DNA from: Bacteroidota bacterium
Lineage (GTDB): Bacteria; Bacteroidota; Bacteroidia; Bacteroidales; FEN-979
Length of the DNA stretch: 64,000 nucleotides
Direction of reading: 5' to 3'
Assembly (NCBI GenBank): GCA_026391355.1
Contig: JAPLDH010000033.1
Location: 4,505 to 68,504, forward strand
Part shown: piece by piece, positions 8,292 to 43,358 of the stretch
How the letters are laid out: the number at the start of each line of letters is the position of its first letter
Position numbering within the stretch: position 1 is the first letter of the stretch
Notes under the pieces: generated by a model
Told to the model about the DNA's origin: nothing
Database searches by the model: none
What the model saw: only the letters and a program-made list of their open reading frames with translations
Program-made: the position numbers and the translations under genes

Positions 8292-9500
8292 ATGATTGTC
8301 AGATCCAGACCAAAATTCATTTCATACAGGATGTTCAATAACCTTCCATCCAAATCCATTGAAACGGGTGATAAATTATTTTTCAATTATGGCAGAAGCG
8401 CGTTGAAATTTTTTTTCTCTAATTACCGGGATTATTATCAAAAGAAACTCAAAATAGCACTGCAGTCCTTCAATTGCCCGGTAGTGATGGAGGCCATATT
8501 ACAATCAGGAAATATCCCGATACTAATGGATATCAACCTGAAGGATTTCTCGGTTCAATTACAGGAAATCTCCCGTGTCAGTGAAGTTCCGGATATACTC
8601 ATCCTGACCAGTTACCAGGGAATTCCGCCACAGGAGTACCGGGAAATTGCTGATTATTGCAGATCATCGGGTATCTTCCTGGTGGAAGACCTGTCACATA
8701 CAATCGGATCCGGGATAAATGGCATCATGACTGACACACTTTCAGATGCATCACTCTTTTCCTATGCAATTGACAAACCATTTTCCTGCTATTACGGAGG
8801 AATGTTGAATATTGAACGGATCCGGGATCCTAAGCTCAAAGGATACCTGATCCGGGAATATGAAAAAGTTTCCATTGAAAGCAGCGCCAAGACAGCATTT
8901 GATCTGAGAATGCTGAAAATATTATTACATTATACGGATCCTGCCAGGTATGATCCCGCTTTCGATATTTCATTTTTCTTTTATTTCCCTAAAATGGTAT
9001 TCATTTTCTCCCCCCTTATTTTGTATTTCCCTTTCTTCAGAAGGATTTTTATCGCGGCAGTTTCACGTACCTTCGGTTTTAAAGAGCCTGAATCGAAGAT
9101 CACTGTTCTTCGGCTCAGGAACAGGAAGGTCAATTTTATTCTACGGCAGGAAAATGAATTTCACTATGATAAACGGGAAATTGATGCGCTTGAAGAATTC
9201 CTTTTAAGTATTAAACTGCAACCTGTCCATTTTAAATCATGTGAAATTCACTGGAACAGATACTCGATTTTGGATCCGGATAATAACCTTCGGGAAGAGC
9301 TGAAAAAAATCGGTGTTCAGGCAGGAAATTATAACTGGCCGGTCCCGATGCACATCATGTATGCCGGTAATGAAAACATTGTCGTCAACAATGGAAATAG
9401 CTATCCCAACAGTGAATTTGCATGCGACCATATCGTCAATATTCCCGTTTGGTGTGATTTCTTCCAAAAAAGAATGAGTAACCGTCAGTATGGACAATAA
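8292..9500 (+). CDS. DegT/DnrJ/EryC1/StrS PLP-dependent aminotransferase family (divergent)
   Basis: YGRSAL, VEDLSHTIG, FSYAIDK...GG (PLP Lys), PNSEFACDHIVNIP. Confidence 0.8.
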   Translation: MIVRSRPKFISYRMFNNLPSKSIETGDKLFFNYGRSALKFFFSNYRDYYQKKLKIALQSFNCPVVMEAILQSGNIPILMDINLKDFSVQLQEISRVSEVPDILILTSYQGIPPQEYREIADYCRSSGIFLVEDLSHTIGSGINGIMTDTLSDASLFSYAIDKPFSCYYGGMLNIERIRDPKLKGYLIREYEKVSIESSAKTAFDLRMLKILLHYTDPARYDPAFDISFFFYFPKMVFIFSPLILYFPFFRRIFIAAVSRTFGFKEPESKITVLRLRNRKVNFILRQENEFHYDKREIDALEEFLLSIKLQPVHFKSCEIHWNRYSILDPDNNLREELKKIGVQAGNYNWPVPMHIMYAGNENIVVNNGNSYPNSEFACDHIVNIPVWCDFFQKRMSNRQYGQ

Positions 9501-10494
9501 GCAGAAATACCATCAGTTGTGCAATTCTGAACCGACAATCCCGGTTTTTTCAAAAGCCTGGTGGCTGGATACTGTCTGCGGGATTGATAATTGGGCTGTT
9601 CTGCTCTTTGAGAAAAATGATGAAATTCTGGGGGCTCTTCCCTTTACATGGGTAACAAATAACAGGTATAAACATATATCCCAGCCGTTGTTAACCCAGA
9701 ATAATGGTATATGGATTAAATATCCTGATCCACAGCCATATGGAAAACGCTTAAGCTACGAAAAGGAGGTCATGGGCTCCCTGATAACCCAGTTGGAATT
9801 GCTGGATATCTCAACCTACAGGCAGCGGTTTCATTATTCATTCACCAACTGGCTTCCTTTTTATTGGCAGGGATATTCTCAAACCACATTCTATACATAC
9901 GTAATTGATGATATCTCTGATCTCAGCCGTGTAGAAGAAAACTTTAGCTATGCGAAGAAGAAGAACATTTTGCGAGCAGAGAAAATCATTGAGGTAAAGT
10001 TTGATCTGAGCGCTGAAGAATTCTATAATAATCACAAAGCAACACTATTAAAGCAGGGTCAGGAGATCATTTACCGGTTCGAAGATTTTATAAGAATTTA
10101 TGATGCGGTTTATTCAAGGAATGCAGGCAGGACTATATATGGAACCGACCAGGATGGCAACCTGCACAGCGCCCTGTTCGTCATCTGGGATGAAATGAGC
10201 GGTTATGATCTGATCAGTACCATCGATCCTGATTTTCGGGATTCCGGGTCTGCTACCCTGCTGGTTCGTGAAATCATCCGTTTTCTGAATGGAAAGACAC
10301 AGAAGTTTGATTTTGAAGGCAGTATGATTGAAAATGTGGAGAACTCTTTTCGTCAGTTTGGCGCTGTTCAGAAACCCTATTTTCTGATCTCTAAAACTTT
10401 TTCTCCCCGGTTGAAAATGAAGGAGAATTTTAATGAATTCCGAGGTAACCTTAAACTTTGGTTAAATTCAAGAAAAAATTACAAATTCAGATAA
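9490..10494 (+). CDS. FemAB-like GNAT (putative aminoacyl-tRNA-dependent transferase, VimA-like)
   Basis: VFSKAWWLD, QPLLTQ, TTFYTYVI and FDFEGSMIENVENSFRQFGA motifs. Confidence 0.8.
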   Translation: MDNKQKYHQLCNSEPTIPVFSKAWWLDTVCGIDNWAVLLFEKNDEILGALPFTWVTNNRYKHISQPLLTQNNGIWIKYPDPQPYGKRLSYEKEVMGSLITQLELLDISTYRQRFHYSFTNWLPFYWQGYSQTTFYTYVIDDISDLSRVEENFSYAKKKNILRAEKIIEVKFDLSAEEFYNNHKATLLKQGQEIIYRFEDFIRIYDAVYSRNAGRTIYGTDQDGNLHSALFVIWDEMSGYDLISTIDPDFRDSGSATLLVREIIRFLNGKTQKFDFEGSMIENVENSFRQFGAVQKPYFLISKTFSPRLKMKENFNEFRGNLKLWLNSRKNYKFR

Positions 10495-10533
10495 ATATTT
10501 CCCGCCGGGAATATCAGAAACTTCATAAATAAA

Positions 10534-11841
10534 ATGATCCGGGTCAAACTACCACAAACTTTCCAGCCTGAGCGTCAGTATCTTCTTGAGGTAATCTTTA
10601 CGGAATTCCTGGGAATTGAATTCGTCCGTGAATATACGGAGTCATTTGATTATTCTATCCTCCTCGAAAACGGTAAAATATTGATCATCAAGGATTATTT
10701 TTTCTCCTCGTTAGAAGGGGTTTATCCTTCACAAAAAAATATTCCTGAAAAAGTTGAATACGTTACATTACCCTTTACAAGTGAGAAAGATCTCCCTCTA
10801 CTTTACGGAAACCCTGAATTGATTGAGGAATCAGATCAGATCATCTGCCATGTGGACATTTTTGCATCGGTATTTTTTATGCTGACGCGATGGGAAGAAT
10901 ATGTGGTTGCTGACCGTGATCATTTTAACCGCTTCCCTGCTGAAGCATCGCTTGCTGTAAAAAACAATTTTCTTTTACGGCCTATTGTCAACGAATATAT
11001 TGAATTCCTGTGGAACCTATTGATTCATTTGGGAATCAATGACCAAAGAAAAGTTTCACAATTCAGGATTGTTCCAACTCATGATATAGATATTATCCAT
11101 TACAGGTATTCAATGCTCAGGTTAATCAATGACATTGCAAAACGAAAGAATGCCGGTATTATCGCAAAAAGAATCAAATACCGCATTACCAATCCTTTTA
11201 ACAGCTTCGGGTTCATTATGGACCTGAGTGAAAGAAACGGGTTAACCTCCCACTTCTATTTCATGAGCGGAGGAGAATCGGAATATGAAGGCTTTTACAA
11301 TGTCACCGGTAAAAAGGCAGGATCGATATTTCAGATGATCAGAAAACGCAACCATACCATCGGATTTCATCCCAGCCATAATACATACAACCAGAAACAA
11401 CTTTTCCTGAAGGAGAAGAATATGCTTCAGGAGTCGGTAAATTTAGCGATCACGGAAGGGCGCCAGCATAATCTCAGGTTTGAGGTTCCTGGTACCTGGC
11501 AAATATGGGAGGAGTGTAGTATGCATACGGATTCGTCGATGGGTTATCCGGAATCAGACGGGTTCAGGTGCGGAACCGGAAATGTGTTCAGTGTTTTCAA
11601 TTATTTAACACGAAAAAAGTTGTCCCTGAAAGAAAGGCCGCTGATTTTCATGGACAGTACATTCCAACTCTACAGGAAACTTCCCATAACCGAAGTAAAA
11701 CCAATTGCAGATTACTATAAATCCGTATGCAGGAAATACAAAATGCCATTTACCCTCCTGTTTCATAATACCTCTTTTGAGGATATTTTCTGGAATGGAT
11801 CGAAAACAATTTATACGAATATTCTTGAAACTGAGAAATAA
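10534..11841 (+). CDS. Polysaccharide deacetylase with extended N-terminal domain (VimE-like)
   Basis: DIFAS.FFMLTRWEEY, THDID, GFHPS, RQHNLR, DSSMGY, GFRCGT, LLFHN. Confidence 0.8.
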   Translation: MIRVKLPQTFQPERQYLLEVIFTEFLGIEFVREYTESFDYSILLENGKILIIKDYFFSSLEGVYPSQKNIPEKVEYVTLPFTSEKDLPLLYGNPELIEESDQIICHVDIFASVFFMLTRWEEYVVADRDHFNRFPAEASLAVKNNFLLRPIVNEYIEFLWNLLIHLGINDQRKVSQFRIVPTHDIDIIHYRYSMLRLINDIAKRKNAGIIAKRIKYRITNPFNSFGFIMDLSERNGLTSHFYFMSGGESEYEGFYNVTGKKAGSIFQMIRKRNHTIGFHPSHNTYNQKQLFLKEKNMLQESVNLAITEGRQHNLRFEVPGTWQIWEECSMHTDSSMGYPESDGFRCGTGNVFSVFNYLTRKKLSLKERPLIFMDSTFQLYRKLPITEVKPIADYYKSVCRKYKMPFTLLFHNTSFEDIFWNGSKTIYTNILETEK

Positions 11842-11856
11842 GAAAAACATATTCTG

Positions 11857-13347
11857 ATGGGGCAGTTAAAAACTATAAAAAGCTACTCAAAAGACACAGT
11901 TGTTTACGGACTGGGGTTTGGTCTTCAAAAATTTGTCGGGTTTCTCCTGTTACCGTTATATACCCGTGCATTAAACCCCAGTGACTATGGAATCATCGAT
12001 ACCATCACTGCCGGTTTGCTACTTTTTACGATCATTATTCAGGCTGGTTTAACCAATGCCTCGTCACTCTATTTCTACAAGGCCGGATCGGAGGAAGAAA
12101 AAGGCAAGCTTCTGTTTACACTCTTGGTTCTCCGCCTTTTATCGGTTATTCCTTCACTCATAATCAGCATATTTTCAAGACAGATCTCCATATCCCTGTT
12201 TGATACTGACAAGTACACCTGGATGGTTTTTATTTCCTGTATGCTCATTCCCATTTCGCTCCTCAATGACGAACAGATATGGATCTTCCGGTTTTACAGG
12301 AAACCCTGGCGATACAACCTGGGGACGGTAATTAAAACGGTCGGAAATGTTTTCTGGGGACTTTTACTGGTGGTTTTTCTGCGGCAGGGAGTATGGGGAG
12401 TTCAGATGGCTACATTTCTCAGCAGTTTCATGGTCATTATTTATACATTTTTTTCTTTTTCAAGGAAAAGGTATGTTTATAAATTCAGCAAGTACTGGGC
12501 GAAGACCCTCCTTAAATTTGGCGCTCCTTTCATTTTATCCCTGGCAGTCTCATGGGTCTTCTCCTCCGCCGACCGGTATTTTCTGCTCCATTACCAGAAT
12601 ACAACAGAGATTGGCCTTTATTCAATTGGGTACACCTTCGCACGCCCGATGCAGTTGATCAACATGGCTTTTGGAATGAGCTTCCTCCCCTTCTTCATGT
12701 CGTTATGGGAAAAAGAAAGCGATACAGATAAAACTGCAACAAAGAAAGCGGCAAAGGGTATCTGGTACATGTACCTGGTGCTGACCTGTGTACTTGGGTT
12801 ATTTCTTTCGATCTTCATCGCACAGATCCTTCCCTTTGTCACCACCCCGCAGTATATAATGGGCGCAGCTGCAGTACCGCTTCTTATTTTTTCGGGTATT
12901 GTACGTCAAAGTACAGATATGAATAGCCCTGGCATAGGTCTGCGGGAAAAACCTTTGCATTATGTGTGGATGACCATCGTCGTGTCTATTGTAAGCCTTG
13001 GTATGAACTTCTTGCTGATTCCCAGAATAAGCTTCCTTGGTGCTTCCATCAGTAACCTTGTTTCGAACATCGTTTATTTTATCCTCGCGGTTACCGTTTC
13101 ACAGCATTATTTTAAATATGACCTGCAGATCTTCCGCGCTGGGTTCTATTTCCTGGTAAATTTCGCCCTTGCAGCCGTATTCCCGATTGCTGAGTTGAAA
13201 TTCAACATTCATTTCCCGATACTTCTCAAGGTAAGTGTCTATTTTATCGGTCTTCTACTTCCCTTTATTTTTGGTGTCATAAAAATTTCAGATTTAAGGT
13301 TAATAATTACTGCAATTAAAAACAGAAAAAATGAGATCCCCGCATAA
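11857..13347 (+). CDS. wzx: Wzx oligosaccharide flippase
   Basis: Many TM segments; LLPLYTRAL.PSDYG, DRYFL, EIGLYS. Confidence 0.9.
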   Translation: MGQLKTIKSYSKDTVVYGLGFGLQKFVGFLLLPLYTRALNPSDYGIIDTITAGLLLFTIIIQAGLTNASSLYFYKAGSEEEKGKLLFTLLVLRLLSVIPSLIISIFSRQISISLFDTDKYTWMVFISCMLIPISLLNDEQIWIFRFYRKPWRYNLGTVIKTVGNVFWGLLLVVFLRQGVWGVQMATFLSSFMVIIYTFFSFSRKRYVYKFSKYWAKTLLKFGAPFILSLAVSWVFSSADRYFLLHYQNTTEIGLYSIGYTFARPMQLINMAFGMSFLPFFMSLWEKESDTDKTATKKAAKGIWYMYLVLTCVLGLFLSIFIAQILPFVTTPQYIMGAAAVPLLIFSGIVRQSTDMNSPGIGLREKPLHYVWMTIVVSIVSLGMNFLLIPRISFLGASISNLVSNIVYFILAVTVSQHYFKYDLQIFRAGFYFLVNFALAAVFPIAELKFNIHFPILLKVSVYFIGLLLPFIFGVIKISDLRLIITAIKNRKNEIPA

Positions 13348-13972
13348 GGAAAAAATTCTTGTATTGGCACCACATACAGATGACGGAGAGTTGGGATGTG
13401 GCGGCAGCATGCATAAATTCATCAATCAGGGGGATGATGTTTATTATGCCGTTTTTTCTCTTGCCGAGGAATCTGTTCCGGACGGTTGGCCAAAAGATAT
13501 CCTTCGAAAAGAGGTTTCTCATGCTACCCAAACCATCGGAATTCCGCCTGATAACCTGTTGATCTTTAAATACCCGGTCAGGAAGTTTTCCCAGTTTCGC
13601 CAGGAAATCCTTGAGGATATGGTCAGGCTCAACCAGAACCTCAAACCCGATGTTGTATATATGCCTTCCCAGTTTGATCTCCACCAGGACCATACGGTAA
13701 TTGCAAACGAGGGATTACGCGCTTTCCGGAACTGTACCATTATCGGGTATGAATTGCCCTGGAACAACATACAATTTGAGCACAACCTGTTCGTCATCCT
13801 TTCAAAGAAAGAAATCGATAAGAAAATGGAAGCTCTTCGCTGTTATCAATCCCAGACTGGAAAAATCTATTTTAAAGAAGAATTTATTAAAGGCCTGGCA
13901 ACTTCAAGAGGTGTCCAGGTTTCATCAGAATTTGCAGAAGCCTTTAAAGTGATCCGCTGGATTATCCGGTAA
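13331..13972 (+). CDS. PIG-L/LmbE family N-acetylsugar deacetylase
   Basis: APHTDDGELGCGG, DLHQDH and CYQSQ motifs. Confidence 0.92.
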   Translation: MRSPHKEKILVLAPHTDDGELGCGGSMHKFINQGDDVYYAVFSLAEESVPDGWPKDILRKEVSHATQTIGIPPDNLLIFKYPVRKFSQFRQEILEDMVRLNQNLKPDVVYMPSQFDLHQDHTVIANEGLRAFRNCTIIGYELPWNNIQFEHNLFVILSKKEIDKKMEALRCYQSQTGKIYFKEEFIKGLATSRGVQVSSEFAEAFKVIRWIIR

Positions 13973-13984: not shown

Positions 13985-14674
13985 ATGAGCATTGTTGCTA
14001 TCCATCAACCTAACTTTTTACCCTTTTATGGCTATTTTTCAAAAATTGCCGGTTGTGATCAGTTTGTGTTTCTGGATGATGTTCAGTATGAAAAGGGGAG
14101 TTACACAAACAGGGTAAAGATTTTTGACCGTTCGAAGAATGAAGGCGCCTGGCTGACCTGTCAATTGTCCAATTTCAGGTTTGGCCAGAATATAGATGAG
14201 GTACTTATTGAGCCTTCCTTTCAATGGAAAACCAAACACCTGAAGTCATTGCAGTTGAATTATAAAAAAGCAAGGTACTTTGATCAGATTTTCGGTCTCC
14301 TTGAAAAAGTTTACCGGAAAGAACATTCCCGGCTTGTTGATTTTAATCTTGATCTCCTATTTTGTATTTCGGATTATTTGGGGGTTCCCCGGTCAAAGTT
14401 TCACCGTTCCTCTGAATTCCATCTTTCCAGCAAATCAAATCAACGGCTGATAGAGATCTGCAAATTACTTGGATGTGATACTTATCTGCACGGAAAGGGA
14501 GCAGTAAAATATCATGACCCACATCTCTTTGAAGAGCATGATATCCGGCTGACGCCAGTTGATCATAATATTGTTTATTCCCAGTTCGGGGAGGGATTTA
14601 TCCCCTATCTTTCGGTGATCGACCTGTTATTCCATCATGGAAAGGAATCTATTCAAATCCTTAAAGTTAAATAA
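13985..14674 (+). CDS. WbqC-family protein (putative glycyl transferase)
   Basis: IHQPNFLP..GYF, DDVQY, TNRVKI and LSVIDLLF motifs. Confidence 0.9.
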   Translation: MSIVAIHQPNFLPFYGYFSKIAGCDQFVFLDDVQYEKGSYTNRVKIFDRSKNEGAWLTCQLSNFRFGQNIDEVLIEPSFQWKTKHLKSLQLNYKKARYFDQIFGLLEKVYRKEHSRLVDFNLDLLFCISDYLGVPRSKFHRSSEFHLSSKSNQRLIEICKLLGCDTYLHGKGAVKYHDPHLFEEHDIRLTPVDHNIVYSQFGEGFIPYLSVIDLLFHHGKESIQILKVK

Positions 14675-32885: not shown

Positions 32886-34046
32886 ATGCAAGTAGAAAAT
32901 AAACAAGTTTGTGCCTTGGGTGTTTGGGATTCAACAATTCCCGGGATTGTCTTTGATGAGTATGGAATTTCCAATTATGCCCGGATCCAGCAGAATTTAA
33001 TGTCGGATTTTCCAAGAGGTGACAAAGGAAAGAAAGATTGGTCAGTCCTCGTAACAAAGGTCAAAGAAGCCGGAAAAAACAGGAGATATGATTGCATAAT
33101 AGGTGTAAGTGGTGGCACTGACAGTTCCTATTTATTACATATTGCTCATGAATATGGTCTCCGCCCCCTTGCCGTAAATCTTGATAATGGATGGAACTCA
33201 GATATTGCAGTTAAAAACATTAAAAAAGTTACTGCTGCCCTGAACATTGATCTGGAAACCTATGTGATCGATTATGAAGAAATAAAGGATATTCTTAAAG
33301 CATATATGCGGGCAGGGCTTCCCTGGATCGATAATCCTACCGACCAGGCCATTCACTCCATCCTTTATCGTAAAGCCATTGAAGAAAAGATCGGGTTTAT
33401 CCTGATCGGTACTGATTTCCGTTCAGAAGGGAAACAACCCTCTGAATGGACATACGGAGATTCCAAACAACTGAAATATATTGTCAAGCGGTTTGGTACA
33501 ACCAGGATTAAAACTTACCCGGTTGTTTCATTTCCGAAAATGGCATATTACAATTACTTACGAAAGATTAAGGTAATCCTTCCTTTTAATTATATAAACT
33601 ATAAGAAAAACGAAGCACAGGAATTCTTAAAGAAACAATATGGATGGGAGTATTACGGGGAACACCATCATGAAAATATATTCACAAAATGGGCCATAGG
33701 TCACTGGATGTACACTAAATTTGGAATGGATAAAAGGATCATTACCTATTCATCACAGATTTTAAGCGGTGAAATGACCAGGGAAGATGTGTTAACAAAG
33801 ATCAGTATTCCTCCGTATGACATTGCCGGTGCTGAAAGAGACACTCTATACATCATTAAGAAACTGGGGTTTCGCCAGGAAGAATTTGACACCATCTGGA
33901 AGGATACCAATAAAACCATCTTTGATTATCCTTCTTACTATCAGACCATTGTAAAATACAGCCGGTTCCTGTCGCCCCTGATTAAATACATTTTTAAAAA
34001 TAAACCCAAATTTTTTTATGAATTGGAGGGTAAGGCAAAACATTAA
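32886..34046 (+). CDS. N-acetyl-sugar amidotransferase (WbpG/WbuX family), copy 1
   Basis: PP-loop YDCIIGVSGGTDSS, DNGWNS, W..YGEHHHEN. Confidence 0.9.
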   Translation: MQVENKQVCALGVWDSTIPGIVFDEYGISNYARIQQNLMSDFPRGDKGKKDWSVLVTKVKEAGKNRRYDCIIGVSGGTDSSYLLHIAHEYGLRPLAVNLDNGWNSDIAVKNIKKVTAALNIDLETYVIDYEEIKDILKAYMRAGLPWIDNPTDQAIHSILYRKAIEEKIGFILIGTDFRSEGKQPSEWTYGDSKQLKYIVKRFGTTRIKTYPVVSFPKMAYYNYLRKIKVILPFNYINYKKNEAQEFLKKQYGWEYYGEHHHENIFTKWAIGHWMYTKFGMDKRIITYSSQILSGEMTREDVLTKISIPPYDIAGAERDTLYIIKKLGFRQEEFDTIWKDTNKTIFDYPSYYQTIVKYSRFLSPLIKYIFKNKPKFFYELEGKAKH

Positions 34047-34072
34047 TTCGATTATCACAGTAAATCCATAAT

Positions 34073-35209
34073 ATGAAGGAAATTACACTCTGTTCCCGAT
34101 GTATTCTTGATACTACGGTCGACGATATCTGGTTCGATGACCATATGGTCTGTAAGTATTGCCATTTCCATGATGAAATGGAAAAGCAGCATCCCTTAGG
34201 AGATAAGGCCGAAAAAATATTAAATGAACTGGTTGCAAAAATCAAGAGGAGTGGGAAAAATAAAAAGTATGATTGTGTGGTCGGGGTAAGTGGTGGCCGC
34301 GACAGTACGTTTACGCTATACACCGCAGTGAAACTCGGTTTACGCCCTCTTGCCGTTCATTTTGATAATGGATGGAATTCGGATATTTCCGTAAGAAACA
34401 TCAAGAATGCCTGTGAAAAACTAAATGTTGATCTGTTTACAATTGTTGCAGATTGGGAAGAATTTAAAGACCTTCAGATCTCATTTCTGAAAGCATCAAC
34501 TCCCGATGCAGATGTTCCGGCAGATTATGCGATCTACTCGGTGTTATATTCTGTGGCAAGTAAGGAAAAGATAAAGTATATCTTTAACGGCCACAGTTTC
34601 AGAACGGAAGGAACCTCCCCCATCAGTTGGACTTACATGGATCCTGTCTATGTCCGTGACGTTCATCATAAATTTGGAAAGATCAAGAAATTCACAAGTT
34701 TTCCACATATGACCCTGTTCAAACTACTTTACTATATTTTTATTAAAAACATCAAAGAAAAACGGATACTCGAATATATTGATTATAAGAAAACAGAGGT
34801 CGATTCCTTCCTCACGAAAGAATTGAATTGGACATATTATGGCGGACACCATCATGAGAATTATTACACACGTTTCTTTCAATCCTACTATCTGCCAAAA
34901 AAATTCAATATTGATAAACGCAAGACAGAATTGTCAGCGCTGATCCGTTCCGGCCAGATTACAAGAGAGGCCGCCTTGAAAGAGATCGCAACCGAACCCT
35001 ATTCATACGAGGAAAAGAACGTCGAATATGTGATCAATAAACTGGGTTTGTCAAGGAACGAATTCGATCAGATCATGAATGCAAAACTTCAAACCCATAA
35101 AGATTACAGGACTTTACTCTCTCTGATAAAGTTTTTAAAAGGTCCGATCCGGCTCTTCACGAGATTACACCTGTTACCTCATATTCTTTACCTGAAATAT
35201 GCCAGCTAA
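34073..35209 (+). CDS. N-acetyl-sugar amidotransferase (WbpG/WbuX family), copy 2
   Basis: CSRC...CKYC, YDCVVGVSGGRDS, HFDNGWNS, YGGHHHEN. Confidence 0.92.
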   Translation: MKEITLCSRCILDTTVDDIWFDDHMVCKYCHFHDEMEKQHPLGDKAEKILNELVAKIKRSGKNKKYDCVVGVSGGRDSTFTLYTAVKLGLRPLAVHFDNGWNSDISVRNIKNACEKLNVDLFTIVADWEEFKDLQISFLKASTPDADVPADYAIYSVLYSVASKEKIKYIFNGHSFRTEGTSPISWTYMDPVYVRDVHHKFGKIKKFTSFPHMTLFKLLYYIFIKNIKEKRILEYIDYKKTEVDSFLTKELNWTYYGGHHHENYYTRFFQSYYLPKKFNIDKRKTELSALIRSGQITREAALKEIATEPYSYEEKNVEYVINKLGLSRNEFDQIMNAKLQTHKDYRTLLSLIKFLKGPIRLFTRLHLLPHILYLKYAS

Positions 35210-35819
35210 GATTGTTATTATCGATTATGGTATGGGTAACCTCCGGTCTATTCATAAGAAATTTCAACGGATCGGATATTCTGCTGTGGTTTCCGGAGAT
35301 ATTAACATTATCCGGCAAGCTGATAAATTAATCCTTCCGGGTGTCGGACATTTTGCAAATGCGATGAAAAATCTGAGGGAATTAAACCTTCTGGAGTTAT
35401 TAAATGAAATGTCCCTTGTAAAACAGCTCCCGATACTTGGAATATGCCTTGGTATGCAACTTTTAGGAAAACATAGCGAAGAAGGTTTTGTCGATGGATT
35501 GGGTTGGCTGGACGCTGAAGTAAAACGTTTTCATGTTTCTGACACCTTGAAATTCAAGATTCCTCATATGGGATGGAATACAACCGATATTAAAAAAAGT
35601 TCCCCGTTACTTTCCAACATTCCGGTCAACAGTTTATTCTATTTCGTTCACAGCTATCATATGAATTGTAATTCGCAGGAGGATATACTTGCCACTACTT
35701 GCTATGACTATGAATTTGTATCAGCCGTTCAGAAAAATAACATTTTCGGAACGCAATTTCACCCGGAAAAAAGTTTTGATTATGGGGAAACGATTTTAAA
35801 AAATTTTGCTGACTTATAA
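35199..35819 (+). CDS. hisH: HisH-like glutamine amidotransferase subunit (WbuY-like)
   Basis: DYGMGN, LPGVG, GICLGMQ, FVHSY, QFHPEKS; glycan-locus paralogue. Confidence 0.9.
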   Translation: MPAKIVIIDYGMGNLRSIHKKFQRIGYSAVVSGDINIIRQADKLILPGVGHFANAMKNLRELNLLELLNEMSLVKQLPILGICLGMQLLGKHSEEGFVDGLGWLDAEVKRFHVSDTLKFKIPHMGWNTTDIKKSSPLLSNIPVNSLFYFVHSYHMNCNSQEDILATTCYDYEFVSAVQKNNIFGTQFHPEKSFDYGETILKNFADL

Positions 35820-35821
35820 CG

Positions 35822-36583
35822 ATGTTCAGACCACGTATCATACCCGTTCTGCTTCTCAGGCAACTTGGCCTTGTTAAATCTGTCAGGTTCAAAGACTACC
35901 GTTATATCGGCGATCCGATAAATGCGGTGAAAATTTTTAACGATCTGAAAGCAGATGAATTGGTATTTCTTGACATTACAGCAACTGCTGAAAAGCGTTT
36001 GATCTCGCTCGATTTCGTCAGGAACGTGGGGGACGAAGCAAATATGCCTTTCGCCGTTGGAGGCGGCATCAGATCCATCAAGGACATCAAGAAAATCCTG
36101 AATGCTGGTGCGGAAAAAGTTGTGATCAACTCTTACTCTTATGAGGATCCGGAGTTTATCCATGAAGCGTCCGATATTTTCGGGTCTTCTACGATTATCG
36201 TATGTATCGATGTTAAAAAACAACTGTTTGGAGGCTACCAGGTTTATACAAAAGGTGGAACAAAAGCAACAGGTAAAGCAGCAGTTGACTATGCGATGGA
36301 AATGCAACGCCTGGGGGCCGGAGAAATTATCGTTCAATCAATTGATAAAGATGGGATTATGGAAGGATATGACATCGATTTAATCAGAAAAATATCTGAA
36401 AAAGTTACCATTCCTGTGGTTGCGCTTGGGGGAGCAGGTTTGTATCCTCACTTCTCAGAAGCTGTCAGATCAGGATTGGCCAGCGCTGTTGCCGCCGGAA
36501 GCATGTTTGTTTACCATGGCCCCCGTAGGGCTGTCTTAATTAATTTTCCAACACAGGATGAAATAAAAAAAATCTTTTCATGA
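35822..36583 (+). CDS. hisF: HisF-like ammonia-channel subunit (WbuZ/HisF2)
   Basis: RIIPVLL, YIGDPINAVKIFN, VGGGI, AAGSMFVYHG...VLINFP tail typical of glycan-associated HisF2. Confidence 0.9.
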   Translation: MFRPRIIPVLLLRQLGLVKSVRFKDYRYIGDPINAVKIFNDLKADELVFLDITATAEKRLISLDFVRNVGDEANMPFAVGGGIRSIKDIKKILNAGAEKVVINSYSYEDPEFIHEASDIFGSSTIIVCIDVKKQLFGGYQVYTKGGTKATGKAAVDYAMEMQRLGAGEIIVQSIDKDGIMEGYDIDLIRKISEKVTIPVVALGGAGLYPHFSEAVRSGLASAVAAGSMFVYHGPRRAVLINFPTQDEIKKIFS

Positions 36584-37650
36584 GAATCTTTATTGACATA
36601 GGACATCCTGCTCATGTCCATTACTTTAAAAACCTGATCAGGATAATGGAAAAAAATGGACACACTTTCTTTATTATGTCAAGAGATAAAGAAGTTGCGT
36701 TCAAATTACTTGATAGTACAGGTCATGATTATAAATCACGAGGAACCGGGGGGAATGGATACCTGAGCAAGTTCTTTTATCTAATGAAAGCAGAAAAGAT
36801 CATTTATAAACATGCAAAAGTTTTTAAACCAGATGTGTTTTTAAGTTTTAGCTCTCCTTATGCAGCACATGTTTCAAAACTTTTAGGCAAACCACATATT
36901 ACCATTGATGATACCGAGCATGCAAGACTGGATCATATCTTATATCCCCCCTTCACCGATACAATCCTGAACCCTGCATCCTACTTTGCCAATATGGGGA
37001 AGAAACAAATACGATTTAATGGTTTTATGGAGTTATGCTACCTGCATCCCAAATATTTCCAGCCAGATCCGGAGATTTTAACGGAACTTGGAATAAATTC
37101 AGGTGAAAAATATATCTTTCTGAGGTTCATTTCCTGGACGGCTACCCATGATATTGGACAGGGAGGCATGAACGTCGCTTTCCAAATGGATTTGGTTGAA
37201 AAAATGCACAACAAATACAAGATCTTTATCTCATCAGAAGGAGATCTGCCGGAATTATTATTACCTTATAAAGTAACCGTTTCACCTGAAAAAATACATC
37301 ACGTACTTGCATTTTCCTCCTTATTTATTGGTGAGGGAGCAACCATGGCATCTGAATGCGCCATGCTTGGGATACCTGCAATTTATGTCAACTCATTAAC
37401 TGCCGGAACATTAGAAGAACAGGAAAAATATGGCCTGATATTCGGTTTTAGAAATACCCTGGGAGTGATTGAGAAAGCAAATGAATTATTAAGCCGTCCA
37501 AACCTCGCTTCTGAATTTCAGGAAAAAAGAATGAAGATGCTGAAAGACAAAATTGATGTAACTGCCTTTTTGATTTGGTTTCTGGAAAATTATCCTCAAA
37601 GTATCAGGATCATGAAAGAAAACCCTGCATTCCAGGAGAGATTTAAATAG
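36580..37650 (+). CDS. DUF354 family protein (predicted GT-B glycosyltransferase)
   Basis: DIGHPAHVH, RDKE, DDTEHA, GEGATMASECAMLG. Confidence 0.85.
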   Translation: MRIFIDIGHPAHVHYFKNLIRIMEKNGHTFFIMSRDKEVAFKLLDSTGHDYKSRGTGGNGYLSKFFYLMKAEKIIYKHAKVFKPDVFLSFSSPYAAHVSKLLGKPHITIDDTEHARLDHILYPPFTDTILNPASYFANMGKKQIRFNGFMELCYLHPKYFQPDPEILTELGINSGEKYIFLRFISWTATHDIGQGGMNVAFQMDLVEKMHNKYKIFISSEGDLPELLLPYKVTVSPEKIHHVLAFSSLFIGEGATMASECAMLGIPAIYVNSLTAGTLEEQEKYGLIFGFRNTLGVIEKANELLSRPNLASEFQEKRMKMLKDKIDVTAFLIWFLENYPQSIRIMKENPAFQERFK

Positions 37651-37651: not shown

Positions 37652-38431
37652 ATGGCAAGGGATTTCACTGTCAGTACCTATCGCAAAATTCTGCAATCAT
37701 TACTTGATGCAGAATATATTTTTCTGACATATGCAGATTACCAGGCTTCCTCTGCAAATATCAGATGCGTGATCCTGAGACATGATGTGGATGCTGATCC
37801 TGAGAAATCACTAGAATTTGCAAAGATTGAGAAATCCATTAATATCAGGTCTACATTTTATTTTAAAACTTCTGGAAATTCTTTCAATGAGCAGATTATC
37901 AAAGAAATTGCAGGATTGGGACACGAGATCGGCTATCATTATATGGATCTTTATGAATCAAATGGTAACATTTCAAACGCTATCCGGTCATTTGAAATAA
38001 ATTTGTCATTTCTCAGACAATTCTATCCTGTTCACACAATATGTATGGATGGCAGATCACTTTCAAAATGGAATAACCTCGAATTGTGGAAATCATATGA
38101 TTATAAGCAGTTTGGTATTACAGGTGAACCTTACCTTGACATTAACTTTAACCTTGTACTTTACCTTACTGATACCGGCCGCAAATGGAATACCTCCAGG
38201 TTCAATCTTTATGATAAGGTACAGTCAGCATACAATTACAACAATAAATCCTCAAAAGAGATTATCCGGGATGTCGCCAACAATACGTTGCCTGATCAGA
38301 TCATGATTACTACTCATCCGCAAAGATGGCACGACAAAATAATACCCTGGATCAATGAATTTCTTCAGCAAATCCTGAAAAATTCCCTCAAACTTCTCAT
38401 TATAAAATTCCGGAGCTGGCAGAACCGTTAA
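37652..38431 (+). CDS. Polysaccharide-deacetylase-like protein
   Basis: LRHDVD, GHEIGYHY, YLTDTGRKW, THPQRW. Confidence 0.72.
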   Translation: MARDFTVSTYRKILQSLLDAEYIFLTYADYQASSANIRCVILRHDVDADPEKSLEFAKIEKSINIRSTFYFKTSGNSFNEQIIKEIAGLGHEIGYHYMDLYESNGNISNAIRSFEINLSFLRQFYPVHTICMDGRSLSKWNNLELWKSYDYKQFGITGEPYLDINFNLVLYLTDTGRKWNTSRFNLYDKVQSAYNYNNKSSKEIIRDVANNTLPDQIMITTHPQRWHDKIIPWINEFLQQILKNSLKLLIIKFRSWQNR

Positions 38432-38437: not shown

Positions 38438-39475
38438 ATGAACGTAAGTTTTCCCCTTATTGACATTTCTTCTCTTGACAGGTATCGATGGTCTGAATTT
38501 ATTATGAATCAACCGGAAGGTTCTGTTTTTCAATCCCCTGAGTTTTATCACCATCTTTTAAATGTTCCCAACTATCAACCTGCCGGGATTGCCTGCACCG
38601 ATGAGAATAATAATATTGCCGGGATTCTGTTGGGCTTTATCATCAGAGAACGACAAGGGATTATTGGAAGTTTCTATGCCAGGGCCATTGTTCATGCAGG
38701 TCCCCTTATTGCATATGATCAACCCGATAAACTTACAATTTGCGATATTCTCCTGAAAGGTTTTATAGCATTGGTTAAAAAGAAATCGCTTGTAATTCAG
38801 CTCCGCAATCATTTTAATCTGTCAGATTTCAGAGAAATCTTTAAAAAAAATGGATTTCTCTTCCAGGAACATCTTAATTTATTCATTAATATCAGGCAAA
38901 CATACTTACCCCTTCAAACAATAAGTAAAAGGAAACTTCAACAGATAAGAAAAAGCCTTGCCAATGGTGCTGTAATTTCTGAAGCATCCACACCTGGTGA
39001 AGTAGATGATCTATATTCCATTCTCCATCATCTTTATAAACATCGCGTAAAAAAGCCACTTCCCGGAAAAGGGTTTTTTCGGGCATTTTTACAATCATCT
39101 GCTGAACAAAAATTAGGGGTCATTTTACTTGTCAAATACCAGGGAAAGGTGGTAGCCGGGATGGTCTGTCCTATTACCCCCGGAAAAGTAATATATGAAT
39201 GGTATGTATGTGGGCTGGACAGGGAATATAAGTCAATCCACCCTAGTGTTTTGGTAACCTGGGCTGGAATTGAATACGCCAGAACAAATAATATTCCTAT
39301 ATTTGATTTCATGGGGATGGGAAACCCCGGAAAAGCCTACGGAGTAAGAGATTTTAAAATGGGTTTCGGCGGAACCATTGTTAAATATGGACGTTTTCTC
39401 CGGATTAATAACCAGGGATTGTACACTGTTGCGAAACTTGGGTTAAAAATCCTTGCTTCTTTAAAACGTGTTTAA
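38438..39475 (+). CDS. FemAB-like GNAT (putative aminoacyl transferase)
   Basis: VFQSPEF, GPL, FDFMGMG...YGVRDFKMGFGG. Confidence 0.85.
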   Translation: MNVSFPLIDISSLDRYRWSEFIMNQPEGSVFQSPEFYHHLLNVPNYQPAGIACTDENNNIAGILLGFIIRERQGIIGSFYARAIVHAGPLIAYDQPDKLTICDILLKGFIALVKKKSLVIQLRNHFNLSDFREIFKKNGFLFQEHLNLFINIRQTYLPLQTISKRKLQQIRKSLANGAVISEASTPGEVDDLYSILHHLYKHRVKKPLPGKGFFRAFLQSSAEQKLGVILLVKYQGKVVAGMVCPITPGKVIYEWYVCGLDREYKSIHPSVLVTWAGIEYARTNNIPIFDFMGMGNPGKAYGVRDFKMGFGGTIVKYGRFLRINNQGLYTVAKLGLKILASLKRV

Positions 39476-39491
39476 TTTGAGAATAGAAATA

Positions 39492-41030
39492 ATGAGAAAG
39501 TTTATTTTCGGTTTTTTTACCAATTCATTACTCATTGCTGTTTGCTATTATTTTTTCAATTGGTTAAAATGGGGAACCTTAATTCTTCCGCTTAGTATCA
39601 ACCTGACCTTTGTTCTTTTCTTTTTTGTCTGGCTGGTCGTTGCTCTGTTAACGAAAAAATATGTCATCACAAATAAAGAATTAAAGATTGAAATACTCTC
39701 AACAATTGCCTTAAGTGACCTGATTGAATTGATTGTTTTTGGAATTCTGATAAAATATTTACGACATTTTGAAAATATAAGGTTCGTTATTCTTTATACA
39801 CTTTTGTTGACTTCGATAGTTGAATTAATACTGGGGTATTCATTTGCATATTTTAAGAAAACAACCGTCCGGCAACCCTTTTATGAAGAACATGCAAATG
39901 GATTTACTGCAAAGAGTCCTGTTGTTGAACCCCCGGTGTATAAAAGAAAGAAGAGCCCGGTGCCGGATGAATTCTATCACTATCCCGGACCAATCGATTT
40001 ACACCAAATCATTATTGAAGAAACAAATGAAAATACGTTCAATTTCGTAAAAGATTATTTTACCAACCCTCATGATACCCTCGTTTTATCGACAACCACA
40101 GTTTTTAATATTTATAATCAACCCCGGGAGAAATTTAAGGTAATTATCAATCTTAAGAGAATCAATGATATTCAGTATATCAATAAATTCTTTGAAGCAA
40201 TCAATACAAAGCTGGATAATACAGGGATATTTATTGATTGGGTGGAGACCTATTCACTGAAGAAAAAAAGGATACTGGCGGAGTATGTCGTAGGCCTGAA
40301 CTATCTTGTTTATGCTTTTGACGTTATCTTTCACAGGATTTTCCCAAAGCTGCCGGTCACAAAAAAAATCTATTTTTTCCTTACCAAAGGCCGGAACAGG
40401 GTTTTATCAAAAGCTGAAACGTTTGGCCGTTTATATTCATGCGGTTTTGAAATTATTGAAGATCTGTTTATTGATAACCGTCTCTTCTTTGTAGTTCGCA
40501 AGATCAAAGAACCGGCATTTGATAAAAATCCAACTTACGGCCCCTTGATAAGACTGAAACGTATTGGTAAGAATGGAAAGATCATCGGGGTTTATAAGTT
40601 GCGGACAATGCATGCCTATTCGGAATATCTCCAGGGTTATATTCATACCAAGAATGATCTGCAGGAAGGAGGAAAATTCAAGAATGATTTCCGTATTACA
40701 ACACTTGGAAGGATCTTCAGAAAACTATGGATCGATGAACTCCCGATGCTGATAAATTTAATAAAAGGAGATCTGAAATTTGTCGGTGTTCGACCTTTAA
40801 GTCAACATTATTTTAACCTGTATTCAGAAGAATTACAGGAACGCCGGCTTAAATACAAACCCGGACTTATCCCTCCTTTTTATGCTGACCTTCCAAAAAC
40901 CCTCGATGAAATTATGAAGTCGGAAATCAGATACCTTGATTCTTATGATAAGTCGCCAATATTTACCGATATTTCCTATTTTTTCAAGGCATGGTATAAT
41001 ATAATTTTTAAAAGAGCCAGAAGCAATTAA
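39492..41030 (+). CDS. Initiating polyprenyl-phosphate phosphoglycosyltransferase (bacterial sugar transferase) with N-terminal TMs
   Basis: RIGKNGK...YKLRTM, D.RIT..G, RK..IDELP, GDLKFVGVRP, KPGL. Confidence 0.88.
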   Translation: MRKFIFGFFTNSLLIAVCYYFFNWLKWGTLILPLSINLTFVLFFFVWLVVALLTKKYVITNKELKIEILSTIALSDLIELIVFGILIKYLRHFENIRFVILYTLLLTSIVELILGYSFAYFKKTTVRQPFYEEHANGFTAKSPVVEPPVYKRKKSPVPDEFYHYPGPIDLHQIIIEETNENTFNFVKDYFTNPHDTLVLSTTTVFNIYNQPREKFKVIINLKRINDIQYINKFFEAINTKLDNTGIFIDWVETYSLKKKRILAEYVVGLNYLVYAFDVIFHRIFPKLPVTKKIYFFLTKGRNRVLSKAETFGRLYSCGFEIIEDLFIDNRLFFVVRKIKEPAFDKNPTYGPLIRLKRIGKNGKIIGVYKLRTMHAYSEYLQGYIHTKNDLQEGGKFKNDFRITTLGRIFRKLWIDELPMLINLIKGDLKFVGVRPLSQHYFNLYSEELQERRLKYKPGLIPPFYADLPKTLDEIMKSEIRYLDSYDKSPIFTDISYFFKAWYNIIFKRARSN

Positions 41031-41097
41031 CGTTATTTCTTCAAGCAATTGCATTTCTAATATTTTTTTTTCACATTGACTATCTAACTCCTCCACG

Positions 41098-42738
41098 TTG
41101 AAACTCCGGTCTGTAATATCTCTCCTGGTTGGATTTATTCTTTTTTTTACCGTAACAGGGGTTTCTCAATACATTTATGTACCCTTTAACGATCCCGGCT
41201 TAGAAGAGTTATTGGACGAACTCAATTCAGAACATGTTTTTATCCTGAATACAGTTGTAAAACCATATTCAAGAAAACTGGTTGCAGAAAAACTTGCAGA
41301 AGCCTTATCGAAAGATTCATTACTAAGCAGGCGTCAATTATCCGAAATCCATTTTTATTTGAAAAATTTCAGACAGGAAGTCCGGTTTCTTAAAAATGCA
41401 AATAATGGTTCAATCATACCATCACAATTAAAATTCTACCTATTAAATGCTGACCCGGTAAATGTTTCCATTTTTCACAACTCATTTACATTCTCTTATA
41501 TACCTCTGATCGATGCCCGGTATTATCTGAATAAAAATGCTTCTGTGTATTCGATAAAAAGCGGTGGAGCTATTTCAGCATATTTTGGAAAACATATTGG
41601 TATTGCAGCAGGAATTTATAAGCAATTTGCAAATGAAATTCTCGTGGATCCGGAGTATTTTGAGCCTGGGTGGGGAGGAAACTGGAATCATTGGGCTAAA
41701 GGAGGCGGGACTTACATTGATTGGTTCGGTCAGCTCACCTTTTCATGGAAATGGGGTATGATCGGGATATTCAAAGACAGGCTCGATTGGGGGAATAATT
41801 ATCATGGTGCTAACATTTTTACCAGCAAACCCCCTTCTTTCCCTTCAGTCCGTATTCACCTGTTTCCGGCAAAATGGATTGAATTCAATTACTTTCATGG
41901 ATGGCTTTCATCGGGGGTAATTGACAGTAACCTCACCTTCCATGAACATAACGGGTTGAAAACCTATTATCAGGGAAAGTATATTGCCGCAAATCTACTG
42001 ACTGTCACTCCCTGGAAATATCTTCATATTTCATTGGGAAATTCAATCATTTATGACGGAAACCTTCAACCGGCATACCTGATACCAATACTTTTCTTCA
42101 AGTCTGTTGACCATACACTGAGTGCAACAATCGACAATGAGAATTCCCAGATGTTCCTTGATATCAGTTCCTGCCAGATCAAGCATCTGCATCTCTTTTT
42201 AACACTATTCGTGGATGAGCTCAAGTTATCAAGGATAATGCATAAGGACCAACACAATTTTCTCAGTTGGAAAGGAGGGCTGAAGATCTTTGATCTCCCC
42301 GTTCAAAACCTGTCGGTTACCATCGAAGGTACCAGAACCTTACCCATCACCTATCAACATTATTTCCCAACGCTCACCTTTGAAACAAAAAACTATAATT
42401 TCGGAAACTACCTGAGAGACAATTCACAGGAAATATATTTCGAAATTTCCTTTAAACCAATTCAGCGCTTGAACCTTGAACTGGCATACAATTATGCCGA
42501 ACATGGAGATAATTTTAAATATGGGCAGGTTACAGATCCAACTGTACTTCCTGTCTTCAAGAATATTTCCTGGAAAAAAAAGGAAGTTTCTTTCACCTCC
42601 GGATTTGATTTGCTTTCGAACCTCCACCTTTTTTTGACGGTTCAGTATCGTGAAACAACCGGAGAAACCCGCTTTATCCCACCTTTGTATTACGGGACTA
42701 CCGCAACTATGTCTTTAGGATTCCTGGCGGGGTTCTGA
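41098..42738 (+). CDS. Wzi-family capsule assembly outer-membrane beta-barrel
   Basis: Signal peptide, KPYSR, alternating barrel strands, ENSQMFLD, C-terminal Phe. Confidence 0.7.
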   Translation: MKLRSVISLLVGFILFFTVTGVSQYIYVPFNDPGLEELLDELNSEHVFILNTVVKPYSRKLVAEKLAEALSKDSLLSRRQLSEIHFYLKNFRQEVRFLKNANNGSIIPSQLKFYLLNADPVNVSIFHNSFTFSYIPLIDARYYLNKNASVYSIKSGGAISAYFGKHIGIAAGIYKQFANEILVDPEYFEPGWGGNWNHWAKGGGTYIDWFGQLTFSWKWGMIGIFKDRLDWGNNYHGANIFTSKPPSFPSVRIHLFPAKWIEFNYFHGWLSSGVIDSNLTFHEHNGLKTYYQGKYIAANLLTVTPWKYLHISLGNSIIYDGNLQPAYLIPILFFKSVDHTLSATIDNENSQMFLDISSCQIKHLHLFLTLFVDELKLSRIMHKDQHNFLSWKGGLKIFDLPVQNLSVTIEGTRTLPITYQHYFPTLTFETKNYNFGNYLRDNSQEIYFEISFKPIQRLNLELAYNYAEHGDNFKYGQVTDPTVLPVFKNISWKKKEVSFTSGFDLLSNLHLFLTVQYRETTGETRFIPPLYYGTTATMSLGFLAGF

Positions 42739-42740
42739 TC

Positions 42741-43358
42741 TCAACCACTTTCCTTCGTATCTATTTCCTTCATTGAAGGAGGATATCCAATTTTCTCCTG
42801 CCAGAACCACCATAAACCGAAAATCACCACATAAAACATCGGGCGGAGAATATAGTCATGGGTAAATTTTAGTATATCAGGTATCAGGGCACCTGTAATT
42901 GCCATGCTTGATACCCGTACAAGATTCGTCAGATAAATCAAAGCAATCCCAAGCGGGATGTACCAGAGCTTCCTTTTCCAGGAACCTGGAAAAAGGAGCA
43001 TTAAAATGATAAACTGGATAATTGGTTTAAGCCCTGAACAGGAAGGATTTATTACTATCCCGCAATGATTATCCAGCCACAATACCGACCCGGGGGCAAT
43101 TTTAACATTGATGTGAAGGATGTTTGTAATGATCCACAAACTCTGGGCAAAGATCCATTGGGCAACAACTTCATTTGCTTTTTCCATTATATCCCCTAAA
43201 GGAAAATAATTCAGCCTGTTTGCCCAAAATCGCCAGAATACATGAATCAGGATGGTAATCAGACAAAAAAGAGCCACTCCTCTCACCTGTCTCCATTTCC
43301 GGTCAATCAGAAAAGAAGTAATTTGTGGATATTTTGTGGAAAGGTAGTTTCTGTCCAT
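42741..43358 (-). CDS. Exosortase/archaeosortase-family transpeptidase-like membrane protein
   Basis: Cys-Arg-His triad motifs: PSCSGLK, NLVRV, FTHDY; hydrophobic, 205 aa. Confidence 0.85.
   Translation of the reverse strand: MDRNYLSTKYPQITSFLIDRKWRQVRGVALFCLITILIHVFWRFWANRLNYFPLGDIMEKANEVVAQWIFAQSLWIITNILHINVKIAPGSVLWLDNHCGIVINPSCSGLKPIIQFIILMLLFPGSWKRKLWYIPLGIALIYLTNLVRVSSMAITGALIPDILKFTHDYILRPMFYVVIFGLWWFWQEKIGYPPSMKEIDTKESG

Follow-up and report, generated by a model that had tools for sequence, protein, structure and literature searches.

Fem-type transferases paired with deacetylase-like genes in a capsule-type locus of a Bacteroidales genome that ends at a small exosortase

Why does a single polysaccharide locus hold three transferases of the Fem superfamily, each next to a gene for a deacetylase-like protein, and end at an exosortase? 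The question is raised by a stretch of 64,000 nucleotides, here called the window, from Bacteroidota bacterium (GTDB lineage Bacteroidales; FEN-979; assembly GCA_026391355.1, contig JAPLDH010000033.1, positions 4,505 to 68,504). The window is part of contig C17 of an assembly of 4.83 Mb in 81 contigs. A first-pass annotation had proposed that the pairs equip one glycan with several amine handles for protein anchoring. The answer favoured here, with moderate confidence, is that the window holds a Wzx/Wzy capsule-type locus whose products are N-aminoacylated amino sugars. The analysis determined which genes are present, their families, their synteny and their distribution, and from these we infer the chemistry, the donor and every acceptor role. 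The genes of the three pairs, and of a fourth adjacency, are as follows.

9490..10494, plus strand: fem1, VimA-type Fem-superfamily transferase of pair 1, 334 aa (Acetyltransf_6, E 1.7e-3)
10534..11841, plus strand: dea1, VimE-type deacetylase with DUF7033, pair 1, 435 aa (DUF7033, 8e-30)
21480..22511, plus strand: fem2, FemAB-family transferase of pair 2 (FemAB 28.7 bits, cut-off 24)
22486..23571, plus strand: dea2 of pair 2, from an uncharacterised family whose NodB-like fold is suggested through a homologue (Polysacc_deac_1 at no better than E 6.8e-3)
37652..38431, plus strand: dea3, CE4/NodB-type deacetylase of pair 3 (family profile against 7y51, 3.9e-6, and PgdA 2c1g, 2e-5)
38438..39475, plus strand: fem3, FemAB-family transferase of pair 3 (FemAB 1e-12, 48.1 bits, cut-off 24; Acetyltransf_6 4.9e-13)
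13331..13972, plus strand: PIG-L/LmbE-family de-N-acetylase of pair 4 (PIG-L 6.3e-18; BshB1-like 3.2e-15, below cut-off)
13985..14674, plus strand: WbqC-family protein of pair 4 (WbqC 1e-64)

All three adjacencies of a FemAB-like GNAT with a deacetylase-like gene, and the fourth of PIG-L (13331) with WbqC (13985), were found among the open reading frames (ORFs) as the first-pass annotation had described them. Its assignment of the three GNATs to the FemABX relatives was also borne out. fem2 and fem3 scored above the Pfam FemAB cut-off. fem1 gave no FemAB (PF02388) hit in the Pfam scan, its Acetyltransf_6 score lies under the cut-off, and it is joined to the superfamily only via hhalign. Three family profiles were used, A1 for the fem1 family, A3 for fem3 and its orthologues and A4 for the dea3 family. 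A1 aligned with A3 at 92.8% over 263 columns, and fem2 with A3 at 96.8% over 298 columns. Against the PDB, A3 matched FmhB (6snr, 7e-13), FemA (1lrz, 1e-12), FemX of Weissella (1xe4, 1.6e-8, residues 13-297 against 8-294, nearly full length) and 9wqw, an entry called 'aminoacyl-tRNA-dependent peptide synthase' (1.8e-8). Single-sequence PDB searches with fem1, fem2 and fem3 gave nothing usable (best E for fem3 0.008, none for fem1). The fem1 family comprised 1482 hits, most of the 120 listed being 53-62% identical and spread over several phyla, and the sources label some of the homologues 'methicillin resistance protein' or 'lipid II:glycine glycyltransferase'. Membership of fem1, fem2 and fem3 in the Fem superfamily, whose characterised members are aminoacyl-tRNA-dependent, is supported by these profile comparisons.

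The pairs had been described as multiplied modules, but they are not duplications. In a BLASTP all-against-all comparison of the pair proteins the sole match was fem2 to fem3 (26% identity over 183 aa, E 2e-4), and no mutual similarity of dea1, dea2 and dea3 was detectable by BLASTP or hhalign. Recent duplication was ruled out by the BLASTP comparison. Searches of the whole genome with A1 and A3 found four Fem-like genes, three in the locus and one on contig C9, and all four adjoin a deacetylase-like gene. The fem1-dea1 gap is 39 nt. The dea3 sequence alone gave no Pfam hit, and its match to CE4 came through the A4 profile.

The pairs lie within a single long train of plus-strand genes, 6581-42738 in the ORF map of the window. 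Its other principal genes are listed here.

6581..7090, plus strand: UpxY-like NusG antiterminator at the start of the locus (Pfam NusG 1.7e-19, plus KOW)
8292..9500, plus strand: divergent DegT-type aminotransferase (DegT_DnrJ_EryC1 5.5e-14, partial match), overlapping fem1 by 11 nt
11857..13347, plus strand: Wzx-type flippase (Polysacc_synt 4.4e-14; about 12 hydrophobic segments)
17067..18470, plus strand: candidate Wzy polymerase, assigned by inference (about 9-10 hydrophobic segments)
24456, plus strand: WecB 2-epimerase (471.7 bits, cut-off 210)
32886..36583, plus strand: acetamidino-sugar module of two WbuX-type N-acetyl sugar amidotransferases with HisH-like and HisF-like proteins
36580..37650, plus strand: DUF354 protein (DUF354 6.8e-23)
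39468..41030, plus strand: large initiating polyprenyl-phosphate glycosylphosphotransferase (PGT; Bac_transf 1.4e-23)

Altogether the locus holds six genes of glycosyltransferase families GT1/GT2, two DegT aminotransferases, two hexapeptide acetyltransferases, SDR enzymes, one methyltransferase and one small GNAT. The 17067 product matched no family above cut-off in the Pfam and NCBIfam scans. The acetamidino module scored 218.6 bits with TIGR03573 (cut-off 203.2), 2e-22 with GATase and 2.7e-62 with His_biosynth. The same set of WbuX-type, HisH-like and HisF-like genes recurs in relatives G001, G020 and G025 with one WbuX-type copy each, and DUF354 homologues were found in G001, G002, G011, G020 and G025. 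The PGT has 4-5 N-terminal hydrophobic segments and matched TIGR03025 at 4.5e-24, under the cut-off of that model. NusG-like homologues were found at the distal end of the relatives' loci when synteny was read. The gene content of 6581-42738 is best read as one UpxY-led Wzx/Wzy-type surface-polysaccharide locus, capsule or O-antigen-like, in the genome of an environmental Bacteroidales bacterium.

If the favoured reading is correct, the repeat unit would be heavily N-modified, and the three anciently diverged Fem transferases would each act with the neighbouring de-N-acetylase. The deacetylase would strip the acetyl group from an N-acetyl amino sugar, and the Fem enzyme would re-acylate the exposed amine, most probably using an amino acid delivered by aminoacyl-tRNA, along the lines proposed for VimE/VimA. 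PIG-L and WbqC would probably form a fourth step in which an amine is exposed and then modified. Pair 1 would be a mobile VimA/VimE-type module as in Wbp-type loci of many phyla, and pair 3, with the acetamidino genes, DUF354 and the initiating transferase, would probably tailor the conserved first sugar. The convergent exosortase and a Wzi-like protein would be the conserved assembly end of the locus. The linking sugar of the T9SS, the type IX secretion system, would more likely come from the core Vim-like pair on contig C9.

Several observations weigh against this reading. The Acetyltransf_6 match of fem1 reached 18.9 bits where the cut-off is 22, and the A1 profile matched no solved structure in the PDB search. 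Genes for a UDP-GlcNAc dehydrogenase and a WbpB-type enzyme were not seen in the window. A Pfam domain was present on 0 of the 120 listed homologues of dea2, the dea2 family profile matched no PDB structure, and hhalign of the dea2 family with the bona fide CE4 protein at 132-1067, with dea3, dea1 and the dea3 family gave nothing significant. Only 1 of 8 other dea2-family loci had a Fem-like neighbour within 1.5 kb, and pair 2 may for this reason be an adjacency and not a unit. A PIG-L gene lay within 1.5 kb of WbqC in 4 of the best 29 other WbqC loci. As for the donor, the literature consulted does not show an aminoacyl donor for VimA, and HfsK of Caulobacter, a GNAT compared with FemX, has been treated as a holdfast N-acyltransferase possibly affecting acetylation.

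Some of the adjacencies could thus be coincidental in a crowded locus, in which case pair 2 and PIG-L/WbqC would not be units and dea2 would be no deacetylase. The rarity of Fem-like genes at other dea2 loci fits this, as do the missing profile match of dea2 to CE4 and the neighbours of WbqC, among which PIG-L is less frequent than DegT (4/29 vs 12/29). Coincidence does not fit the overlap of fem2 and dea2 by 26 nt, or 11 nt counted from the second Met (the dea2 ORF opens at 22486, and the earlier start at 22501 is its sixth codon). Nor does it fit the deacetylase-like neighbours of every Fem-like gene in the genome. A dea2 homologue (39% identical) has NodB/polysaccharide-deacetylase structural neighbours in the ESM Atlas, with TM 0.87-0.89, and the dea2 family has invariant D19/E21, H99/H101 and H327, which we take to resemble CE4 motifs. 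Pair 2 is rare, its dea2 family being present in 9 of the 401 genomes of a phylum sample. Coincidence of these adjacencies is considered rather doubtful.

WbqC was found in 124 of the 251 genomes of a phylum sample. Among the best 29 other WbqC loci (L203-L232), a DegT-type aminotransferase was the most frequent neighbour within 1.5 kb (12/29), WbqC most often following it directly. This position suggests that WbqC acts on a sugar amine. No function for WbqC was found in the literature containing the word. A figure legend places genes for WbqC, LmbE and a GT4 glycosyltransferase of other bacteria in an operon with a dedicated prolyl-tRNA synthetase (ProRS) and tRNA. WbqC may act with aminoacyl-tRNA on a sugar amine, which is offered only as a lead.

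The operon with its own ProRS and tRNA also argues against a second alternative, in which the Fem-like enzymes use acyl donors carried by CoA or ACP in place of aminoacyl-tRNA and the pairs merely swap N-acyl decorations. Matches of fem1 and fem3 to the general GNAT model Acetyltransf_6 agree with acyl donors, and the treatment of HfsK points the same way. A separate deacetylase, HfsH, also controls holdfast cohesion, and HfsH and HfsK likewise both shape an adhesive polysaccharide. HfsK differs in binding c-di-GMP, and the Caulobacter hfsH and hfsK genes are not known to be adjacent. VimA, too, was once annotated as an acetyl-CoA transferase, according to Veith et al. 2020. The same source reports that exchanging the vimA gene of P. 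gingivalis for that of T. forsythia changed the amino acid of the linker from serine to glycine, which argues against acyl donors, as do the full-length profile matches to the aminoacyl-tRNA-dependent FmhB, FemA, FemX and 9wqw. Later work places the seryl sugar within a pentasaccharide linker. Use of CoA or ACP donors by the pairs is judged unlikely.

N-aminoacylation remains the favoured function of the pairs, and pair 1 can be compared with a known system, the Wbp/Vim pathway of Porphyromonas gingivalis and Tannerella forsythia. The two consist of the same two families in the same adjacency. When 9490 and 10534 were compared with VimA/VimE by hidden Markov models, as the first-pass annotation had suggested, dea1 matched the NCBIfam VimE model NF053580 over its full length (E 1.1e-49), and A1 matched genes adjacent to VimE. 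The score of dea1 was about 169 bits, whereas the cut-off of this equivalog model is 440. In the loci of G561 and G678, the gene beside an over-cut-off VimE matched A1 at 8e-97 and 5e-92. Over-cut-off VimE genes were read in G656, G561, G524, G678, G601 and G464 (L186-L191, L198-L202), and those of G524, G601 and G464 pair with a Fem gene of the C9 type. Both the fem1 and the C9 subtype therefore appear to serve as VimA partners in nature. In G656, the best-scoring VimE genome, no VimA-like gene was detectable with a fem1-type or C9-type query, and the gene upstream of its VimE is unrelated.

Neighbours of the Wbp kind are frequent around fem1-family genes. Of the best 80 loci of this family, which come from many phyla, 49 had a dea1 homologue within 7 kb and 37 had one within 500 bp, and DegT-like genes (30/80), hexapeptide acetyltransferases (28/80) and 2-epimerases (12/80) were also found. 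These neighbourhoods fit Veith et al. 2020, who remarked that in Pseudomonas, Aeromonas and Vibrio homologues of vimA/vimE are found together with Wbp genes. Pair 1 differs from the Wbp/Vim system in lying within a variable capsule-type locus, and the dehydrogenase and WbpB genes were, as noted above, not seen in the window. It also differs in that the genome has a second, core Vim-like pair:

C9:55938-58280 (L003:8939-11281), minus strand: core VimE-like plus VimA-like pair in housekeeping surroundings

The surroundings of the core pair consist of uracil phosphoribosyltransferase, MacB/FtsX, helicase and clamp-loader genes. Its VimE-like gene scored about 164 bits against the cut-off of 440, nearly equal to the score of dea1, to which it is 25% identical. 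Its Fem-like neighbour of 315 aa is Acetyltransf_6-like and aligned with A1 at 97.4% in hhalign. A VimE-like gene at E<=1e-30 was present in 192 of the 251 genomes of the order, 6 of which passed the cut-off of 440. The C9-type VimE-like deacetylase was found in 36/36 genomes of the same family and in 56/61 relatives, and only G000, G006, G023, G046 and G047 gave another match of the dea1 kind, 26-29% identical to the C9 query. PorU was present in 58 of the 61 relatives, and all three PorU-less genomes (G042, G050, G053) also lacked a VimE-like gene, a pattern and not a statistic, as these are kin genomes. No counterpart of pair 1 or pair 2 was found in the exosortase locus of any relative. 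It is concluded from these distributions that pair 1 is probably an accessory, horizontally mobile Vim-type module within a variable locus. The core pair on C9 is the likelier of the two to make the T9SS linking sugar.

At its end the locus converges on the exosortase gene and halts two bases short of the stop codon of that gene.

41098..42738, plus strand: Wzi-like outer-membrane protein of divergent sequence, the exosortase's closest partner (PF14052 on 20 of the 120 listed homologues)
42741..43358, minus strand: small exosortase-family protein, XrtX-like, 205 aa (TIGR04178 65.7 bits, cut-off 23)

The convergent end and the intact Cys/Arg/His triad that had been reported for the exosortase were confirmed. 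Cys107, Arg148 and His167 align with conserved columns, which hold Cys in 19/19, Arg in 19/19 and His in 18/19 sequences. The best-scoring named family was XrtX (NF046081), at 100.2 bits below the cut-off of 170. The Wzi-like protein itself gave no Pfam hit, and its homologues are labelled as Bacteroidales or Bacteroidetes metagenome-assembled genomes.

An orthologous exosortase (E<=1e-25) was found in 14 of 60 relatives, and 17 exosortase loci were read, including the window, G011 and second copies. In 12 of the 17, the exosortase had a homologue of the Wzi-like protein no more than about 3.5 kb away. In 10 it had a Fem3-type gene within 10 kb (G000, G001, G002, G003, G009, G011, G020, G025, G047, G060), and in 7 of these 10 a CE4 gene of the dea3 type lay at most about 2.5 kb from Fem. 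CE4 and Fem are directly adjacent in G000, G001, G003, G009, G011 and G020, while in G002 the two are separated by a DUF354 and an epimerase gene. The Wzi-like gene is present without a Fem gene in the loci of G012, G028, G029 and G015b. None of these genes was found within 20 kb or more of the exosortase in G027, G039 and the C5 copy of G015, and in 6 of the 14 relatives that carry an orthologous exosortase the whole genome is without a fem3-type gene. From the synteny of the 17 loci, the conserved end of the locus therefore consists of the PGT, the Wzi-like protein and the exosortase. On the same comparison, the acetamidino genes, DUF354, CE4 and Fem appear as a frequent but optional inner layer of the cassette. 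Co-occurrence of the pairs with the exosortase in relatives thus holds for pair 3 (10/17 loci) and fails for pairs 1 and 2.

True XrtX was found in 51 of the 301 genomes of a phylum sample, mostly in another class. In 18 loci around XrtX or XrtX-like genes of other families, none had Fem, CE4 or Wzi-like neighbours and 4 had a Bac_transf gene nearby. The cassette was accordingly rejected as a general context of XrtX. The window exosortase is alike to Exosortase X, XrtF and XrtH in size and catalytic motifs, and differs from XrtX in its score and in these neighbours. No description of XrtX was found in the literature searched, and no such cassette is described in that on XrtX, XrtF and exosortases with FemAB and deacetylase.

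The XrtA/PEP-CTERM (EpsH) exopolysaccharide loci of Proteobacteria (Haft et al. 2006) similarly contain FemAB (TIGR03019), a deacetylase, an EpsB-type PGT and outer-membrane components. The window locus also unites a Fem-family gene, a CE4 deacetylase, a large PGT, an outer-membrane protein and an exosortase. Its scores are, however, far under the cut-offs (TIGR03019 28.5 vs 260, TIGR03013 51.5 vs 393, 8TM_EpsH 18.8 vs 105). It also differs in the minimal size of the exosortase, in the Wzi-like nature of the outer-membrane partner and in a genome without PEP-CTERM proteins.

Could the pairs then give one glycan several alpha-amine handles, on which PorU and/or the exosortase anchor proteins covalently? 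The syntenic block of pair 3, PGT, Wzi-like protein and exosortase in relatives, with Fem3-type genes near 10 of the 17 exosortases, is consistent with such anchoring, as is the intact triad. NCBIfam (TIGR03019) names FemAB and deacetylase families as associated with XrtA/PEP-CTERM, and so do Veith et al. 2020. Pair 1 is of the VimA/VimE type, and the genome carries three tandem full-length PorU genes (C26:39746-50045, L087-L089; 1332, 1199 and 1228 bits, cut-off 420). At least two PorU matches were, however, found in 36/36 genomes of the same family, whatever their pairs, some being contig-split fragments. The triple PorU was for this reason rejected as a match for several handles. G001, G002 and G005 each have three full-length copies, and G010, G011 and G024 have at least three matches, contig-split fragments among them.

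Two genes beyond the exosortase had been put forward as T9SS cargo, and a second exosortase gene was found elsewhere in the genome.

46010-48367 and 48429-51257, minus strand: two T9SS-tailed genes (Por_Secre_tail 1.3e-13 and 4.5e-9)
C54:90310-90888 (L083:6311-6889), minus strand: second exosortase of the genome (XrtH 87.3 bits, cut-off 86)

The cargo genes are present with their tails, but their link to PorU and the locus comes down to flanking synteny. They lie within a conserved flank of 43692, NUDIX, phosphoribosyltransferase, cargo and TPR genes, the order of which is kept in G001, G002 and G003. In G025 this flank is inverted relative to the locus and lies several kb from the exosortase. 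The T9SS-tailed genes thus appear to be only a syntenic flank and not part of the system.

A search for sorting signals also argued against anchoring. The PEP-CTERM domain (TIGR02595) gave 0 matches at E<=1 in the genome. A regular-expression scan of 4370 ORFs for C-terminal tails of a helix plus basic residues gave 38 candidates with one shared signal, an IPTL-like one in three proteins (C29:165-971, C64:25640-26839, C59:6739-8604). Each carries at its C-terminus an IPT[LM]S.WG-type motif, then a helix and an RRR tail. TIGR04174 (IPTL-CTERM) is passed by two of the three, and one resembles an ice-binding protein. IPTL-CTERM is taken to be the signal of XrtH, and it fits the second exosortase, which passes the XrtH cut-off, and not the window exosortase. 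Four further tail-scan hits, in a phage-like cluster on C44, were dismissed as cargo. This region (C44:24900-40600) encodes small proteins with a hydrophobic helix and KKK tail, which account for the four hits, and a lysozyme-like ORF. No candidate cargo was left in the genome for the window exosortase after the domain search and the tail scan.

The absence of pairs 1 and 2 from the loci of relatives, and of fem3-type genes from 6 of those 14 relatives whose exosortase is orthologous, also counts against anchoring. The same applies to the widespread core C9 pair, which the three PorU-less genomes lack. The GNAT and the two hexapeptide acetyltransferases of the locus could, moreover, cap free amines. 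The positive support for anchoring comes from the synteny of pair 3 alone. The amine handles for PorU or the exosortase, as proposed in the first-pass annotation, are thus considered quite improbable, and N-aminoacylation of a capsule-type polysaccharide is retained as the more probable function of the pairs.

A narrower version of anchoring would make the 205-aa exosortase and its near-constant Wzi-like partner a new capsule-anchoring system of Bacteroidales. The acceptor would be the free alpha-amine of the N-aminoacyl sugar made by Fem3/CE4, and the polysaccharide would be joined covalently to a protein or lipoprotein with an unrecognised signal. Both parts together are regarded as very unlikely. 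If true, anchoring by the exosortase and Wzi-like protein would be an inner-membrane counterpart of the attachment of proteins by PorU to A-LPS.

Some further features of the window were recorded upstream of the pairs. A 182-aa MBOAT fragment (7719-8267) is possibly a truncated gene or has a miscalled start, because the homologous proteins of G001 and G254 run to 382-483 aa. The bona fide CE4 deacetylase used above (132-1067, minus strand; Polysacc_deac_1 6.5e-19) lies outside the locus. Beside it is an unannotated 349-aa ORF (1083-2132, minus strand), in which neither the A1 nor the A3 profile recognises a Fem-like protein. At 2729-4731, Acyltransf_2 and Acetyltransf_5 genes adjoin, a couple resembling the Bacteroidota genes that make N-acyl amino-acid lipids.

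The logic of deacetylation followed by aminoacylation, a possible sortase-like tie and the idea of aminoacylated sugars as sortase acceptors were already raised by Veith et al. 2020. What is new, as judged from the gene comparisons, is that three anciently distinct Fem/deacetylase pairs stand together in one Bacteroidales locus. A family-level cassette of Fem/CE4, a large PGT, a Wzi-like protein and a minimal XrtX-like exosortase without recognisable cargo is also new, as is the coexistence of this exosortase locus with a separate core Vim pair. For T9SS biology the useful result is a negative one, the likely linker genes being the core C9 pair and not the window locus. If the proposed chemistry is true, a single locus would put as many as three or four different N-aminoacyl or unusual N-acyl groups on one glycan. 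It would then also offer suitable enzymes for determining which donor and substrate VimA-like proteins use. The Fem/CE4/PGT/Wzi-like/exosortase arrangement in one Bacteroidales family provides a tractable place to study cargo-less 'orphan' small exosortases.

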